A DNA stretch of 64,000 bases. Source: a virus. Taxonomy: Duplodnaviria; Heunggongvirae; Uroviricota; Caudoviricetes. The notes under the pieces are model-generated. The model was not told the origin of the DNA. It did not search any database and saw only the letters and a program-made list of their open reading frames with translations. Made by a program: the position numbers and the translations under genes. The stretch lies in the IMG/VR virus record IMGVR_UViG_2579779105_000001; one strand, 5' to 3'. Positions 5,221 through 64,000 of the stretch are shown piece by piece (positions within the stretch are counted from its first letter, which is position 1; every line of letters starts with the position of its first letter).

Positions 5221-5484
5221 AGCGCAACGTTAAGAGTATTTGGCTAATTAAGCGAATGCCGGAAGCAGAACCGGATCACCAAATGCGTACAGGCGTCATC
5301 GCCGCCCAGCCAGCCAAGTGCTCTTACCATTGCGGTGAATGCGGCTAAGCGCACGCGGAACAGTTAAAACAATCCTTATTAGTGGTTAAATCAAACATCC
5401 CGGCGTTAATTGTTAACTGGTTAACGTCACCTGGAGGCACCAGGCACCGCAGCTTTTTTATTCGTTAAATAATGGAGTGAGAGG

Positions 5485-5703
5485 ATGCAGAACAATCCGA
5501 ACAAATGTCGAACGCTATGGGTGCGGCTATATATTTATGTCGTCCTCTGTTTGATTGTGTCACTGGTTCTGTATGTTTGGCTTTTGCCAAATATGATCTC
5601 ATCTGACAGCACAATACTTGTATTGTTGGGAGTCCTTCTCGCGCTCATTTACCCGGCTTTTGCAGTAGTCTTTTTTCGCAAAAAAATCCAGGAAATTGAT
5701 TAA
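5485..5703 (+). CDS. small hydrophobic membrane protein (two predicted TM helices)
   Basis: 72-aa ORF with hydrophobic segments; its stop overlaps the start of the next gene (ATTAATG). Confidence 0.45.
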   Translation: MQNNPNKCRTLWVRLYIYVVLCLIVSLVLYVWLLPNMISSDSTILVLLGVLLALIYPAFAVVFFRKKIQEID

Positions 5704-6530
5704 TGAAAAAAACGTTGATTAGTGCAGCGATTATTTTTGGTTCTTTATGTCTGACCGGATGCGACCGGGTAGAACCAGGCAATGTAGGGATCAAAGTAAA
5801 TAAGCTGGGGGATGATAAAGGTGTCGGCGAAGTAGTTGGCGTTGGTCGCTACTGGACAGGCTGGAACACAGAAGTTTATATCTTCCCGACCTTTAAGCAA
5901 ATGAAGACCTATGATGATCCGTTCAGCTTCCAAATGAGCGACGGGACAACAATTGGTTACCACATTGGTGTAGCTTACAAGGTTGATCCGGCAAAAGTCA
6001 CAACTGTATTTCAGACCTACCGCAAAGGCGTGGATGACATTACCGACACCGACCTGCGCCAGAAGATTGCCGACGCACTTAACCGACTGGCCAGCAAAAT
6101 GACCACCGACAAATTTATCGACGGTGGCAAGTCTGAACTGCTGGATGCAGCTCTTAAAGACATCCAGGAAGAAATGACGCCCATCGGTATTCAGGTAATG
6201 AGCCTCTCATATGTGGGCAAGCCGGAGTACCCGCCAACCGTTATCGACAGCATTAATGCCAAAGTCACGGCGAACCAGAAAACTCTGCAACGCGAGCAGG
6301 AAGTCAAGCAACGCGAAGCAGAAGCCAACATGCTGCGCGCAGAAGCTGCCGGACAGGCCGATGCCATTCGCACAAAAGCCCAGGCTGAAGCTGATGCCAT
6401 TCGTTTACGCGGTGAGGCTCTGCGCCAGAACCCCGGCGTTATGGAGTTGGAAGCGATCAACAAATGGAACGGAACGCTACCGCAGTATATGACCAGTAAT
6501 ACCGCTGTTCCGTTTGTTCCGGTGAAATAA
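5703..6530 (+). CDS. SPFH/band-7 (HflK/C-stomatin-like) domain lipoprotein
   Basis: Lipoprotein signal with LTGC lipobox; SPFH-like core and a C-terminal Ala/Glu/Arg-rich coiled coil (AEANMLRAEAAGQADAIRTKAQAEADAIRLRGEA). Confidence 0.6.
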   Translation: MKKTLISAAIIFGSLCLTGCDRVEPGNVGIKVNKLGDDKGVGEVVGVGRYWTGWNTEVYIFPTFKQMKTYDDPFSFQMSDGTTIGYHIGVAYKVDPAKVTTVFQTYRKGVDDITDTDLRQKIADALNRLASKMTTDKFIDGGKSELLDAALKDIQEEMTPIGIQVMSLSYVGKPEYPPTVIDSINAKVTANQKTLQREQEVKQREAEANMLRAEAAGQADAIRTKAQAEADAIRLRGEALRQNPGVMELEAINKWNGTLPQYMTSNTAVPFVPVK

Positions 6531-6543
6531 CCAAATAGAGAAC

Positions 6544-30634: not shown

Positions 30635-30950
30635 AGTTGAATTATAAATTTCTCCGATGTACATTCACTACCGATTGGCACACCGGTCAACTTTTTGAGA
30701 CAAACTGTATAGTTTTTCGTATTATTGCCGCCGCCATACCTATGGCGGTGCAATATAGGTGGCTGAAAAGCCCCCGTTGACTCACGGTGTTCCAGCCTTT
30801 ATTGCGCCGCCACCAGACCGTGGAACAGTCGATGGCGGCTCCGAAAGCAAGGAGTCACTACACTATGAACAGCTACTGTCTTTTCCCGTCACTCGTTGTC
30901 CGCCACTCACGCGATAATCTGCATTCTTTACTCGCGCTGGGGGTGTCAAA

Positions 30951-31118: not shown

Positions 31119-31505
31119 AATACTGACTTTTGCGCCCTGGCATTATCGTGGGGTATATTTCTACGGCACCTTAGAAAAACGGGTGCCGGGATTGGAACCT
31201 CACGCGGTAGCTCCTTAACTTAGTCAAAGGAGGCTGCCAATATCGCTACTATCCCCACCCCAACTCATTCTGAATTTATCTGGCGTTTCTATTCCTGCCA
31301 AAAACACCTGTATATCTGCGTCATGGCTGCAACCGAAGCAGAAGCTCGTTCATACCTTCCCCTGGCGGAACGGGGCGTAATTGGTGATAAACAGATACTG
31401 GGAAACAGTGGAACTACATGAGGCGGGAGTAATTCGTGACCTGATGGAGAATTCCGTTCCCCGCCGCTATCGTGCAGGGAACGGCATCTCCGTGGTTAAA
31501 GGTGT

Positions 31506-31898
31506 TTAAAGCTCACCTGCGCGCTGTTTTTCAAGCACAGATTTAACATTTGGCGCTTTCCCTTTAAAAGAATGGAAAGTGCCACATTTTTCTGTTTTAA
31601 CCTCGCGCAGAGCTTCGCCGTCGGCGTTCTGCCATTGATGGGATAATGTCATATCACCGCGAGAAGGAACATCCAGCGAGTACAGCGTGTAAGTTCCCCC
31701 CATCTCCGCATACTCCTGGAACACATAGCTCATTACGTCAGATTCAGTTTTTCGGTGTGCGTTATCAACCTTATTCCCATTCAGAAATATGGCATCTGGA
31801 TAGATTTTTATATCAAACCGACCGCACTTAACTTGTAAATCTCCGGCGCTCGCGATCAAAGGGAAAGACGCCAGTAAAGCAATAGCCAATCTTTTCAA
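31506..31898 (-). CDS. secreted protein with signal peptide
   Basis: N-terminal MKRLAIALLASFPLIASA signal-peptide-like sequence; 130 aa. Confidence 0.5.
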   Translation of the reverse strand: MKRLAIALLASFPLIASAGDLQVKCGRFDIKIYPDAIFLNGNKVDNAHRKTESDVMSYVFQEYAEMGGTYTLYSLDVPSRGDMTLSHQWQNADGEALREVKTEKCGTFHSFKGKAPNVKSVLEKQRAGEL

Positions 31899-31918
31899 TT
31901 CTGCCTCCGCTGCGTAAC

Positions 31919-32542
31919 TTATTGCCCGTATTTTTTACACCATTGCTCTGCCATTTGTTTGGCTAAAGGCCCGGCTACTGCACTGTATTCTGCTGTTTTA
32001 CTTTGCACACATGAAGCAGATGGTTTTTTATTTCGCTGCTCGGTTAGTTTGCGCTCATAAGCCATCATGCTATCGAACCCGGCAATATCACTTTGGCGAA
32101 GCATTCCCTTTTTAACCAAAAATTGCTGCCCCTCTGGCACCAACGCAAGCATAAAAAGAGGTTGCAATAACTCACCTAATCCTTGCTGGCGATACACTTC
32201 GAATTGCTGCCATCCCTGACTTAATCTGGAAAGAGTATCTTTGGTTGAATAACCTGTTTTTGTTATAGCTTTGTCCGTCAGATATGCTGTATATGCAAAA
32301 ACGCAAAAGTCAGTTTTACCAATAAACTGAGTTCCAACAGGCCGTAATGGAATGCCCTCCCTCTTGCAAAAGTCCATAATGGCCGCTTGTGAATGAACTC
32401 CACCAGCGTTATTCATAACCTGCTGCCCTGCCCTGAATTGTGCAGGTAACGCAGTTGCATTGGCAGTATTAGCAGATACGCATCCCAACATAGCCGCGAG
32501 CGCGGCCCCTAAAGCCCTTAACTTCACTACACCATCCTTCAT
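31919..32542 (-). CDS. secreted or periplasmic protein with signal peptide
   Basis: Signal-like N-terminus ...ALGAALAAMLGCVSANTANA; 207 aa. Confidence 0.5.
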   Translation of the reverse strand: MKDGVVKLRALGAALAAMLGCVSANTANATALPAQFRAGQQVMNNAGGVHSQAAIMDFCKREGIPLRPVGTQFIGKTDFCVFAYTAYLTDKAITKTGYSTKDTLSRLSQGWQQFEVYRQQGLGELLQPLFMLALVPEGQQFLVKKGMLRQSDIAGFDSMMAYERKLTEQRNKKPSASCVQSKTAEYSAVAGPLAKQMAEQWCKKYGQ

Positions 32543-32758
32543 GCAAACAAAATGAAGTTTTATGTTATAAAAACAATTAACTACATAAACATGATTTAGG
32601 CCAAATTTCGGTTAAAAAATAAAATCCACCAAAAGTGGTTGACACTATTTTGGAAATCACAAACTGCACATAATCCATCGCGCTAACGGCTCCCGTTGAA
32701 GGTTCTTTTGACGATTAACTTTCAGCCGAAGCGCGGTAGGGAGTCATAACGCCAAAGC

Positions 32759-32783
32759 AGGCCGCCATGTGCGGCCTTTTTTT
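32759..32783 (+). terminator. terminator-like hairpin AGGCCGC-CATGT-GCGGCCT + T7
   Basis: Read directly from the sequence; lies 28 bp upstream of the 32811 start, so it could be a leader or attenuator. Confidence 0.4.
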
Positions 32784-32810
32784 GTATCCGTCATCCGTGG
32801 AGGAAGGACA

Positions 32811-60651: not shown

Positions 60652-60705
60652 CAACCTGACTCTGTATGGATATCAGCCCGTTAGTGACGTTGAACAATTG
60701 CCACA

Positions 60706-63700
60706 ATGGCGAGCACTCCATATGTCAAAAGCCCTGGAAGAAAAATACAAAGCTCAAGCCGGGAAACGTTGATCGCCGCTGGCAAAAGAGAGGTTATTTT
60801 GAAAGAGAATAAAGACCGTATCGCAATAATTGACGCTATTCAGGGGGCGAGCACAAACGAACTTAACGCTCTTGCTGAGATCAAAGACGCCATTCTCTCT
60901 GGTAGAGGGTCTATAACTCAACTTGGTGAAAATCAAGGTAAAGTAAGTCAAAGACTATCCCGTAGACTCATAGCAAGCGAACCCTATGTCTCTGATGATG
61001 CCAAGAATACCCAAGCTAACCCATATATAAAACGCCTTCCGATGAAAAAAGGGAGGACGCAGATCAACAACGGAGAAGAACGTCTCATTGTTGCAACCAA
61101 CACATCAGAGCGCGTTCATTTTTCGTCATCACGCCAATCCGCCCAAAAGTTGAAAGGTTCTGTGCCAGTAGCCGCTAATTCTGCTCCTCTTGAACCACAA
61201 TCCCCCCAAAGCCAAAAAGGACCGCTTCGGGATAGTAACGGACGCTTTGTATCCCAGAAAAACAACGAAGATATAGCCAGAAAAAAAGAATGGCAGAAAG
61301 CACGTAAGGCTGACGCCAAACTACAAGAAGGCTTCCTCCGAAAATTAGGCTCCATTATAGGGGTAGATGGCAATCAGTCTTCCAGTGAAGAGTCTTTAAC
61401 AGATGCCGCAGGTGTTGGCGCTGGTGGTCCGTTGTGGATGGCTGCTCGCGGCATGTACGACATTACTAAAGAGATCACAGGTAAAGCAGTATCTCTTAAA
61501 GAATGGGTAGAAAAGGGGAAAGGTGAGGCTTCACCTTCGAAAGCGACATCTCCAGCTATCGCTTATCCGGCGGTGGTGAACACTCAAAAAGCAACCTCTG
61601 CAACAGCATTTAATAATGCTGTTGAGACAAAATCAGCACAAGCAGTAGAAGAGCAAACAAAAATTCTTCAGACCAATGACAACAAAATCATTGATGGTCT
61701 GGAAAATGTCTCCGACGAAGTAGTTAAGCTACGCAAATCAGTATCTTCTGGGAATAAGTTCGGCTTAAGTGATCTCTGGAAAAATCGAGCAAGCAGAAGA
61801 AATAAAATCAATATTGGCGATCAGGCTGGTAAAAATAAACGGAACAAACCGAAAAGGAAAGGTCGCAATCTGGGGAAAAAAGCCCTTTCTGTTGGTGAAA
61901 AAGCCGCTGCCGGAACCGCTGCTGCTGGAGCTGGTGCCGTAGCTGCAAAGACTGTTAAAACAAAGGTTAGTAAAGCCAAAGACATCAGCACCACAAGCGA
62001 CGCATCTAAGGGTATTGCTAAAGAAACAAAAAACACAACAAAGGCAGTTAAGTCAGCAGGTGTTGTTGCCGAAGAGGCCACAATTAAAACAGGTGAAACT
62101 GTTGCAAAGAAAAAAACCGAATCCTTAGCACTCAAAAGTGCTGCAAAAATAGGTGTTAAATCAGCTGCTTCTACAGCTGCAAGAGCTATCCCGATCATCG
62201 GCTCAGTGGCTATGGCGGGATATGACGCTATAGATGGTTACACTGATACAGATGCGCAAAAGGCAGCCTTTGGATTAAGTGACGATGATGCTGTATCCGA
62301 ACAGCAAAAAACGGCTTACGCAACAGCTAATGTGCTCGATATGGGGGGCTTGGTGTCGGGCGCAACTAACTTGATAGGGAAAGGAATTTCTGCGCTAGGA
62401 TTTGAAAGAGCAGGTGAAAAACTTCAGGATTTTGATACCGGAGATATTGCTCGTGGTGTTAACGGCGCGGTAGATATCACCAAATCTGTTTTTGGTAGCC
62501 TTAAGGATACATTTTTATCCACTGACGAAAACACGAAACAAGTAAAAAAAGCTGTTGAAGACGGCACCAAAAAAACTGTCGATGCGATTCATTCTCTAGG
62601 TGAACAATTACAAGGTGGGCGTAATGGCGAGGATGGAGTTGGTGAGCACGGGTATACTTCTCCAACTGAATTTAGTGCACCTGCCAACAACACCATTGCA
62701 GCGGATCTGAATATTGGCGGCAGCAACGCTAAAAACCGCAATTACCGAAATAATAATCTCGGCAATCTTGTTTTTGCCAACCAGGAAGGGGCGACACTGG
62801 AATCGCCAAATGCAAAAGGTGAACAACGTTTTGCGCGATTTAACACACCTGAAGAAGGGATCAGGGCACTGGCAAACCAGGTTTCCAGCTATTACAACGG
62901 CACCAGTGCCGCAGCGGGATATCAGAAGTTGCAGACGGTATCCAGCATCATTTCAAAATGGGCACCGCCAAATGAAAACAATACTAACCAATATATTGAT
63001 AACGTCAGTAAATATCTTGGTGTATCGCCTAATGAAAAAATAGATGTCAGCAAACCAGAGGTTATGACGCAATTAGTTCGTGCAATTGCGACGAAAGAAG
63101 GCGGAAATCCGGCAGTTAATAATGAGTTCATTAAGAACGCACTTGGAGCATTTAACACAAACACTGGTCGATGGGAGGGACAATTCTCTGACGAAACATT
63201 GGCGCGGATTAATAAAATTCAGAAAGAAAATGGTGGTCAGCTAATTGCCCGCGATTCGCAATATAGTGTTGGTCGCAAGGTAAAATATGCTAATGGAAAA
63301 TCTCCAGCTCAACCAGTTTTGAATGCCGTTCCGACAGCAACACAACAGCCAATTGAGGTTGCACAACATGCCCAGGCAGTCAAAAAGCCACAAAAAACAG
63401 GTAACCAACCACAACCGATTAATCCAGAGAACGCTGATGTTAATACCGGCTCTCCATCGAGTTTGCTTGAGCGGTTAATCGCAATAAATGAAAGCGGAAT
63501 CAGTGGTGCAAGTAATTTATTTGGCGGCGCGGCTACCAGCCTTGCTGGAACAAGTCTGGATCTGGTAAAGGATTTTGCGTTGGCTACTTCGTTTGGTTCT
63601 ATATCTTCGCTTTCCGAAAAAGCGAAAGGAATGGATCAGGCTCTTACTGAAAAGATATCCGGCTTAACCGGTAAATCTTTTGGATTTAAAAAAGCTTCTC

Positions 63701-64000
63701 AAGTGGCTGATATCGCAACAGCCATACAACAAAAACGCACTGTTAATCACGATACAGAAATCATTGATCTACTTCCGGGAGATCAAGTATCCCCTTTTAC
63801 TCCGAAAACCCCACAGCAGGAGCAGGCTCTAGCAATCAACCAGGCTATGGCGGGCTTTTCGTCTGCAGCGCCAGCACCGAAAACCCCACAGCAGGAGCAG
63901 GCTATAGCAATCAGCCAGGCTATGGAGGGCTTTTCGTCTGTAGCGCCAGCACCGAAAACCCCACAGCAGGAGCTGGCTCTAGCAATCAACCAGGCTATGG
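60706..64000 (+). CDS. large virion protein, tape-measure/Sit-like; 3' end lies outside the window
   Basis: Frame 1 is open from ATG 60706 to the window end (at least 1098 codons) and is absent from the ORF track because it has no stop. Gly/Ala-rich hydrophobic segments and C-terminal tandem repeats. Confidence 0.6.
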   Translation, partial: MASTPYVKSPGRKIQSSSRETLIAAGKREVILKENKDRIAIIDAIQGASTNELNALAEIKDAILSGRGSITQLGENQGKVSQRLSRRLIASEPYVSDDAKNTQANPYIKRLPMKKGRTQINNGEERLIVATNTSERVHFSSSRQSAQKLKGSVPVAANSAPLEPQSPQSQKGPLRDSNGRFVSQKNNEDIARKKEWQKARKADAKLQEGFLRKLGSIIGVDGNQSSSEESLTDAAGVGAGGPLWMAARGMYDITKEITGKAVSLKEWVEKGKGEASPSKATSPAIAYPAVVNTQKATSATAFNNAVETKSAQAVEEQTKILQTNDNKIIDGLENVSDEVVKLRKSVSSGNKFGLSDLWKNRASRRNKINIGDQAGKNKRNKPKRKGRNLGKKALSVGEKAAAGTAAAGAGAVAAKTVKTKVSKAKDISTTSDASKGIAKETKNTTKAVKSAGVVAEEATIKTGETVAKKKTESLALKSAAKIGVKSAASTAARAIPIIGSVAMAGYDAIDGYTDTDAQKAAFGLSDDDAVSEQQKTAYATANVLDMGGLVSGATNLIGKGISALGFERAGEKLQDFDTGDIARGVNGAVDITKSVFGSLKDTFLSTDENTKQVKKAVEDGTKKTVDAIHSLGEQLQGGRNGEDGVGEHGYTSPTEFSAPANNTIAADLNIGGSNAKNRNYRNNNLGNLVFANQEGATLESPNAKGEQRFARFNTPEEGIRALANQVSSYYNGTSAAAGYQKLQTVSSIISKWAPPNENNTNQYIDNVSKYLGVSPNEKIDVSKPEVMTQLVRAIATKEGGNPAVNNEFIKNALGAFNTNTGRWEGQFSDETLARINKIQKENGGQLIARDSQYSVGRKVKYANGKSPAQPVLNAVPTATQQPIEVAQHAQAVKKPQKTGNQPQPINPENADVNTGSPSSLLERLIAINESGISGASNLFGGAATSLAGTSLDLVKDFALATSFGSISSLSEKAKGMDQALTEKISGLTGKSFGFKKASQVADIATAIQQKRTVNHDTEIIDLLPGDQVSPFTPKTPQQEQALAINQAMAGFSSAAPAPKTPQQEQAIAISQAMEGFSSVAPAPKTPQQELALAINQAM
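63802..64000 (+). repeat. 75-bp tandem repeat (at least 2.6 copies) encoding a 25-aa unit PKTPQQEQALAINQAMAGFSSAAPA
   Basis: Copies begin at 63802, 63877 and 63952, with a few substitutions between copies. Confidence 0.85.

Follow-up and report, generated by a model that had tools for sequence, protein, structure and literature searches.

Spackle (Sp), a small periplasmic protein of phage T4, acts as an inhibitor of the lysozyme carried by an incoming tail, and P1 Sim is a system whose mechanism, to our knowledge, has never been worked out. P1 Sim was first described in the 1980s, as judged by references cited in PMC8546580. Its genes, simABC, are non-essential in P1 (PMC10695390) and constitute one of the eight regions in which P1-like plasmids are hypervariable (PMC9603915), and a simB substitution has been reported in a D6-like prophage (PMC6799933). 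Phage-plasmids of the D6/P1 type, which spread resistance genes, are frequently found in E. coli, Shigella, and Salmonella, and the rules by which phage-plasmids enter already occupied cells are poorly understood. Here we describe a two-gene cassette, orfA-orfB, found in a 64,000-nucleotide stretch of Caudoviricetes DNA (IMG/VR record IMGVR_UViG_2579779105_000001; hereafter the window, meaning the whole stretch analyzed), and compare it with these systems.

The orfA-orfB pair represents a distinct and conserved accessory module of two predicted periplasmic proteins (sometimes a single one), which sits in a sim-type slot and does not belong to the Sim family. We tentatively propose that it is non-essential and that its role is most plausibly envelope-level protection such as superinfection exclusion. 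In this part of the window, ref, C4 antisense RNA, and a short icd are followed by the minus-strand genes orfB and orfA, after which come, on the plus strand, mat and tail genes 26 and 25. The cassette is located between the immI region (C4 RNA-icd) and mat, from which it diverges. Positions 31300-32800 share 99.7% identity with non-mobilizable plasmids of about 89-97 kb from E. coli, Shigella, and Salmonella, and the flanks of this region match phage D6, a P1-related plasmid prophage. Judged by these matches, the window is a D6-like (P1-group) phage-plasmid of E. coli.

An original prediction made from the letters alone had described two adjacent minus-strand open reading frames (ORFs) with signal-peptide-like starts and no enzymatic motifs, and had read them as a possible Sim-like exclusion module. 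The two ORFs were recovered at 31919..32542 (207 amino acids from ATG) and 31506..31898 (130 amino acids from TTG). For orfA, the sequence context makes GTG 32527 a more likely start than ATG 32542, because AAGGA lies 7 nt upstream of it and because NCBI records use this start (P0001, 202 amino acids). The start of orfB lies 20 nt past the orfA stop, an operon-like spacing. The ratio of nonsynonymous to synonymous substitution rates (dN/dS) was about 0.12 for orfB, and about 0.16 for orfA where synonymous sites were not fully saturated; both are therefore functional genes under purifying selection.

Both products carry classical Sec signals, with the N-termini M-KLR-ALGAALAAMLGCV-SANTANA/TALPA in orfA and MKR-LAIALLASFPLI-ASA/GD in orfB (the slash marks the predicted cleavage site). 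These calls were made with a simple rule-based scan of window ORFs of at least 100 amino acids, which flagged 8 out of 111, orfA and orfB among them. The predicted signal-peptide-like starts were thus borne out by the scan and, more strongly, by their conservation across the families: a positive n-region and hydrophobic core are kept in 16 of 17 orfA-family and in all five orfB-family proteins, down to about 30% identity, and the signal-peptide sequence drifts among full-length relatives while the signal itself persists in every one. In the orfA family the signal is followed by a conserved mature N-terminus, (A/P)(L/M)P. A lipobox-like MLGC occurs in the closest orfA alleles only and is followed by the conserved AXA-type site, and orfB has no lipobox. 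Because MLGC is not conserved, processing of orfA by signal peptidase I appears likely. A lipoprotein-type exclusion protein (Cor, Llp) was ruled out for lack of a conserved lipobox with Cys at +1. The mature parts contain conserved cysteine pairs, two in orfA and one in orfB, a pattern that would fit an oxidizing periplasm.

Each protein falls into a single PHROG family over its full length, orfA into PHROG 12786 (E 4.7e-132; residues 1-207 of 207) and orfB into PHROG 13864 (E 1.5e-89; residues 1-130 of 130), and the function of both families is unassigned in PHROG. Neither protein had a significant match in Pfam, NCBIfam, or PDB sequences and profiles, none of the PADLOC anti-phage defense profiles matched at E<=1, and Foldseek searches returned nothing significant, in agreement with the predicted lack of enzymatic motifs. 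Queries of both proteins against 50,697 phage records with tblastn gave no match either, despite the existing PHROG families, and no member of the orfB family was found in species-representative genomes.

According to an AlphaFold2 model (mean predicted local distance difference test, pLDDT, of 88.5), the mature orfA protein, of about 178 amino acids with four conserved Cys, is all-alpha with nine helices and would constitute a novel all-helical domain. At its C-terminus a helix-turn-helix around an AGP motif seems more likely than the modelled end, which is doubtful. The mature orfB protein (about 112 amino acids, one conserved Cys pair) was modelled as an eight-strand beta meander followed by a C-terminal helix. 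This model showed weak calycin-, VirK-, and avidin-like resemblances in Foldseek, which were too weak (E >=0.09, template modelling (TM) score <=0.49) to be accepted as a fold assignment.

The two genes travel together. An exhaustive hidden Markov model (HMM) search yielded 22 cluster representatives, and in 17 of the 19 orfB loci in IMG/VR orfA is located immediately upstream of orfB or is fused to it. Two fusion proteins, P0024 (277 amino acids, from Enterobacter hormaechei; its 13 cluster members come from independent assemblies) and P0027 (281 amino acids), consist of an orfA-like N-domain and an orfB-like C-domain, and each matches both PHROGs significantly. The Enterobacter fusion occupies a syntenic slot upstream of mat, between mat and ref. 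Sequence comparison indicates that fusion probably arose twice, because the P0027/P0084 lineage has a different, low-complexity linker from that of P0024. The pair is recognizable on a Vibrio plasmid as well, and each family was found alone in a few places. These patterns suggest that orfA and orfB make up one functional two-domain unit whose parts may cooperate physically. Among PLSDB plasmids orfA is present in 67, of which 65 are non-mobilizable and about 80-97 kb long.

Three links connect the cassette to sim loci. One is allelism. In D6 and about 56 plasmids, the exact slot of orfA-orfB is taken by a SimB-domain gene preceded by the same upstream DNA; the match between D6 and the window extends over this upstream DNA and into orfA for ~12 codons, after which the sequences diverge. 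Counting full-length matches, the orfA allele (~57) and the D6-type SimB-domain allele (~56) are about equally common. D6 is a deposited complete phage genome, with E. coli C600 listed as its host, and it lacks the cassette. The cassette would therefore be dispensable for the phage, since D6 has in its place a SimB-domain gene behind the same promoter.

The second link is neighborhood. Phage-plasmids of Citrobacter and Salmonella encode, head to tail, a secreted 123-amino-acid protein, an orfA-family protein of 163 amino acids, and a homologue of SimB (42% identical to the P1 protein, E 1e-25), the last starting 17 nt after the orfA-like gene. This cluster is located just upstream of icd-like and KilA-N antirepressor genes, an immI-like arrangement. 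The third link is a shared module: orfA-family proteins have a C-terminal Cys hairpin with a homologous counterpart at the C-terminus of the full-length SimA family (36% identity over 56 amino acids, 47 bits), with E 1e-9 against P0061/62/65 and E 1e-5 against P0005/6/8. P1 simA itself (52 amino acids; L003 2913-3071) looks like the truncated N-terminus of a family of secreted proteins of 189-215 amino acids, PHROG 3933. Full-length members of this family are found at the sim locus of other P1-like phages, namely Cronobacter phage JK004 (L020 3001-3570) and phage Ro157c2YLVW (L021 3028-3675), where the SimA-type protein and a 158-amino-acid secreted partner stand in place of simB/simC. On the basis of allelism, neighborhood, and the shared hairpin, the cassette appears to be a member of a pool of shuffled exported modules tied to the sim and immI regions of the P1 group. 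SimA and SimB carry only "putative accessory" status; therefore these links carry little functional weight and transfer no demonstrated function.

As whole proteins, orfA and orfB are unrelated to the Sim families. Compared with SimC (PHROG 14355), the best BLASTP matches in a six-sequence database had E 3.9-10, the PHROGs differ, and hhalign assigned a probability of 0.1-0.3%. No SimC-like ORF was detected in the window by tblastn, nor any sim homologue anywhere within it. Comparisons with P1 SimB (PHROG 14329, or the N-domain of PHROG 13054) gave BLASTP E 0.28-20 and hhalign probabilities of 0.7-1.7%, while the same methods readily detected the true SimB homologues D6 orf79 and L017 (E 1e-23 to 1e-25). 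HMM and hhalign comparisons with the full-length SimA family (PHROG 3933) were negative over the whole length, and the mature sequences are unrelated to that of D6 orf79. Membership in the Sim family was thus ruled out by BLASTP, tblastn, PHROG assignment, and hhalign. The original prediction is thus partly supported. Both products are predicted to be exported and lack enzymatic signatures, and they are encoded in an accessory region of a P1-group prophage, next to immI, that has three links to sim loci; homology of the whole proteins to SimC, SimB, or SimA is not supported.

We favor exclusion because of the position of the cassette, its sim-type allelism and neighborhood, and the presence of family members beside defense genes. 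In Proteus (L016 219-6021), an orfA-family gene is flanked by a tyrosine integrase gene and a Gabija-like pair (OLD-family ATPase/TOPRIM and UvrD helicase). In a Klebsiella prophage (L024-L026 3750-7609), a truncated orfB-like ORF of 92 amino acids has a PARIS-like pair (AAA_15/21 ATPase and DUF4435) on one side and a zeta-toxin/AAA_33 gene, with its 207-amino-acid partner, on the other. The same 240-aa-plus-zeta-like pair trails an orfA-orfB fusion remnant on the phage-plasmid contigs L022 and L023.

Under the exclusion hypothesis, orfA and orfB would be co-transcribed as one accessory cassette in the lysogen, and both products would be exported through Sec, relieved of their signal peptides, and folded in the periplasm with stabilizing disulfides. 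The helical domain of orfA and the small beta domain of orfB would then act as a single two-domain unit that blocks a superinfecting phage after adsorption and so protects the lysogen at the envelope. For instance, it might bind or inhibit a portion of the incoming injection apparatus that is exposed to the periplasm, or else a host factor on which this apparatus depends. Such a role would be functionally analogous to that of P1 Sim, achieved through unrelated proteins.

One candidate target, offered as a lead only, is the injection transglycosylase Sit carried by the P1/D6 tail. Within a structural block of 21 kb, whose identity to D6 is 93-99.5% (mostly 97-99%) elsewhere, sit is the most diverged gene, and in a D6-like prophage it was the only other divergent region reported besides the simB substitution (PMC6799933). 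At least four sit allele classes occur among orfA-positive plasmids in PLSDB, compared with one in the D6-type plasmids sampled. Linkage between sit allele and cassette type is not strict, and the pattern is compatible with shared ancestry. A more elaborate form of the hypothesis, which we consider doubtful, is that orfA-orfB constitutes a new two-domain periplasmic exclusion system with a new all-helical fold, one of several combinatorial secreted modules (orfA, orfB, SimA-type, SimB-type, the D6 C-domain, and the 158-amino-acid partner) shuffled at immunity-adjacent slots of the P1 group, possibly in an arms race with the fast-diverging Sit of competing phages.

Several observations weigh against exclusion as the function of the cassette. 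No experimental phenotype is on record for orfA, orfB, SimA, or SimB, and the sequences of the two proteins give no indication of homology to SimC, which is annotated as the superimmunity-conferring protein. The positional argument is one of guilt by association. Expression in the lysogen is assumed without a convincing promoter: a simple scan upstream of orfA found no strong sigma-70 consensus. The orfA model had no fold match in PDB (best E 0.43) or BFVD (best E 0.63), with TM scores <0.25, and no structural similarity to known exclusion proteins was seen; its last 29 residues were modelled as one helix, which is incompatible with the conserved C-terminal disulfide. For orfB, model quality is moderate (pLDDT 78; of five models, a single one exceeded 70), and several deposited sequences carry a frameshifted or truncated orfB. 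Finally, orfA homologues occur without orfB on large plasmids and in Pantoea and Proteus chromosomes, contexts that a host-fitness role fits equally well.

Such a role, in which the proteins would be lysogenic-conversion factors for fitness or virulence at the envelope, akin to lambda Bor/Lom or prophage SodC and without any part in phage-phage competition, seems unlikely to us. Apart from the chromosomal occurrences, it draws on a solitary orfA homologue (58% identity) found on 94-168 kb plasmids amid insertion sequence elements, beside genes for an Ail/Lom-type outer-membrane protein and an M60/SslE-like peptidase, and on the gut, urinary, and animal origin of the isolates whose plasmids carry orfA. 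However, this virulence-plasmid context also holds P1 remnants (a RepL fragment), and the segment may be a decayed piece of a phage-plasmid. Moreover, the great majority of the orfA family is found on phage-plasmid-sized contigs at the immI-mat slot, where it alternates with a sim-type gene, and it neighbors simB elsewhere. Service in the lytic cycle of the phage itself, such as periplasmic assistance with, or regulation of, lysis or virion maturation, is very improbable. Such a function would suit genes that adjoin and diverge from mat (maturation control) close to tail and baseplate genes, but the cassette is missing from D6 and from about half of the D6-like plasmids, the genes are also found in non-phage contexts, and in D6 the lysis genes lydA/lydB are located elsewhere.

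We also consider it quite unlikely that the pair provides periplasmic immunity or inhibition against exogenous envelope toxins (type VI secretion system (T6SS) peptidoglycan effectors, bacteriocins, lysozymes) rather than against phages. Several periplasmic enzyme inhibitors have a calycin-type fold, and small calycin-type beta-barrels are what orfB weakly resembles, but all of its Foldseek matches were above E 0.09. A more specific pointer to immunity comes from P0088, an orfB-family protein (~30% identity, with a signal peptide) encoded on a P1-like phage-plasmid 2 nt upstream of a gene for a Tlde1-domain T6SS effector, which is followed by hcp; the arrangement recurs in one chromosome. By description only, the size and beta-rich composition of P0088 resemble those of Tldi1, a periplasmic immunity protein of 138 amino acids with a Sec signal (PMC13478106). 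Yet among 45 chromosomal loci with close relatives of the effector, the conserved downstream partner is a 92-amino-acid membrane protein and an orfB-like gene is present at only 1-2, and neither in the window nor in D6-like plasmids does an effector gene lie close to the cassette. Immunity to Tlde1-type T6SS effectors was rejected, as adjacency to a cognate effector is not conserved over these loci. The phage-plasmid contig in question (L027 6001-7711), which has C1 repressor, Lpa, and VRR-NUC genes nearby, carries a T6SS cargo flanked by toxin-antitoxin pairs; it is composed of the orfB-like secreted protein, the Tlde1-domain effector, the 92-amino-acid membrane protein (likely the immunity protein), and Hcp.

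The coordinates of the cassette and of other features of the window are listed in Table 1.

Table 1. Positions of the orfA-orfB cassette, its surroundings, and sit in the window.
Feature	Position	Strand	Description
orfA coding sequence	31919..32527	-	202 amino acids from GTG 32527; in-frame ATG 32542 would give 207 amino acids; PHROG 12786
orfA Shine-Dalgarno AAGGA	32535..32539	-	7 nt upstream of GTG; read from sequence
orfA signal peptide	32456..32527	-	24 codons; predicted cleavage ANA/TALPA
orfB coding sequence	31506..31898	-	130 amino acids; TTG start; PHROG 13864
orfB Shine-Dalgarno GGAGG	31904..31908	-	5 nt upstream of TTG, within the gap after the orfA stop
orfB signal peptide	31845..31898	-	18 codons; predicted cleavage ASA/GD
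AT-rich upstream region of orfA and mat	32543..32768	-	94.5% identity to D6 (megablast and alignment); orfA-orfB promoter presumed here
Right-hand recombination breakpoint	32485..32491	.	D6 alignment: homology stops within orfA signal-peptide codons; D6 runs on into the SimB-domain gene
Left-hand junction	31362..31381	.	blastn of the window against sister plasmid L004/CP058777
C4 antisense RNA	30738-30817	+	Rfam RF01695 match, 40.2 bits, E 1.3e-5; below the gathering score of 45
sit	60666-64000	+	78-92% nucleotide identity to D6

Aligned to D6, the whole window is a mosaic in which ~53 kb match at 81-98% identity, broken by ten replaced segments, one of which is 31362-32484. Another segment absent from D6 (5452-6542) harbors an ORF on the plus strand (5703-6530, 275 amino acids) with a lipoprotein-type N-terminus (MKKTLISAAIIFGSLCLTG/C). 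At the left-hand junction, 1.28 kb are absent relative to sister plasmids, e.g., CP058777. The missing DNA comprises the 3' end of icd, the entire Rha-type antirepressor gene, and the 5' part of a pmgF-like gene, and as a consequence the icd remnant (about 31242-31421) abuts the orfB stop. The immI-type operon of the window thus consists of C4 RNA and a shortened icd without an antirepressor, the sub-threshold C4 match being upstream of icd, as expected. In D6, a second icd and antirepressor pair (orf18/19; L092 19271-20917) is located beside orf16, a putative peptidoglycan hydrolase, and D6 therefore has two immI-like modules.

The cassette is on the icd-downstream side of immI, with pmgC and tub ~25 kb away in the window. 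Its promoter is presumably within the AT-rich region upstream of orfA. P1 C1 operators were not found within the window, and the P1 late-promoter consensus occurred in the window at a frequency not above chance and never near the cassette. Just upstream of mat, a strong terminator-like hairpin (7 bp, 6 GC) with a T run was observed on the plus strand (32759-32787); it would halt plus-strand transcripts that come from the immI side and run antisense through orfB and orfA.

The significance of orfA-orfB is that of a testable candidate exclusion module and of an entry point to unexplained sim loci, and it offers no surprise in kind. A family of interchangeable exported modules occupies the sim-type slots, and within it a naturally occurring pair, both as two genes and as a fusion, with a confidently predicted new fold provides candidates for envelope-level exclusion and a handle on the roles of SimA and SimB. 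If host fitness or anti-toxin immunity were true instead, the pair would still represent a widespread and uncharacterized lysogenic-conversion function.

Set against the known systems, the cassette shows likenesses and differences. T6SS periplasmic immunity proteins such as Tldi1, the partner of Tlde1, are small, Sec-exported, and beta-rich like the orfB family, one member of which adjoins a Tlde1-domain effector and hcp; in contrast to them, the orfB family has no conserved effector association, and the window contains no effector. T4 Spackle-type exclusion shares with our proposal a phage-encoded soluble periplasmic protein that acts after adsorption. The likeness is one of conceivable mode, and the orfA model had no PDB match (best E 0.43). 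Like the cassette, P1 simA-simB-simC form a cluster of genes for small proteins exported by Sec; both belong to P1-group prophages and are found beside immI (C4-icd), in a non-essential and hypervariable slot. SimC is a processed periplasmic Sim protein, and the orfA and orfB families likewise have predicted Sec-type N-termini; SimC shows a weak OB/tRNA_anti-like signal and no detectable homology to either protein. The P1 sim operon has three genes rather than two and is located between pmgC and the c4-icd-ant operon, whereas the cassette is on the other side of immI, upstream of mat. Finally, D6 orf79, a SimB-domain protein (PHROG 13054), differs from the cassette in being a single protein of 277-298 amino acids with a SimB-like N-domain and an unrelated C-domain, and resembles it in occupying the identical slot behind a shared upstream region, in being secreted, and in its similar frequency among D6-like plasmids.

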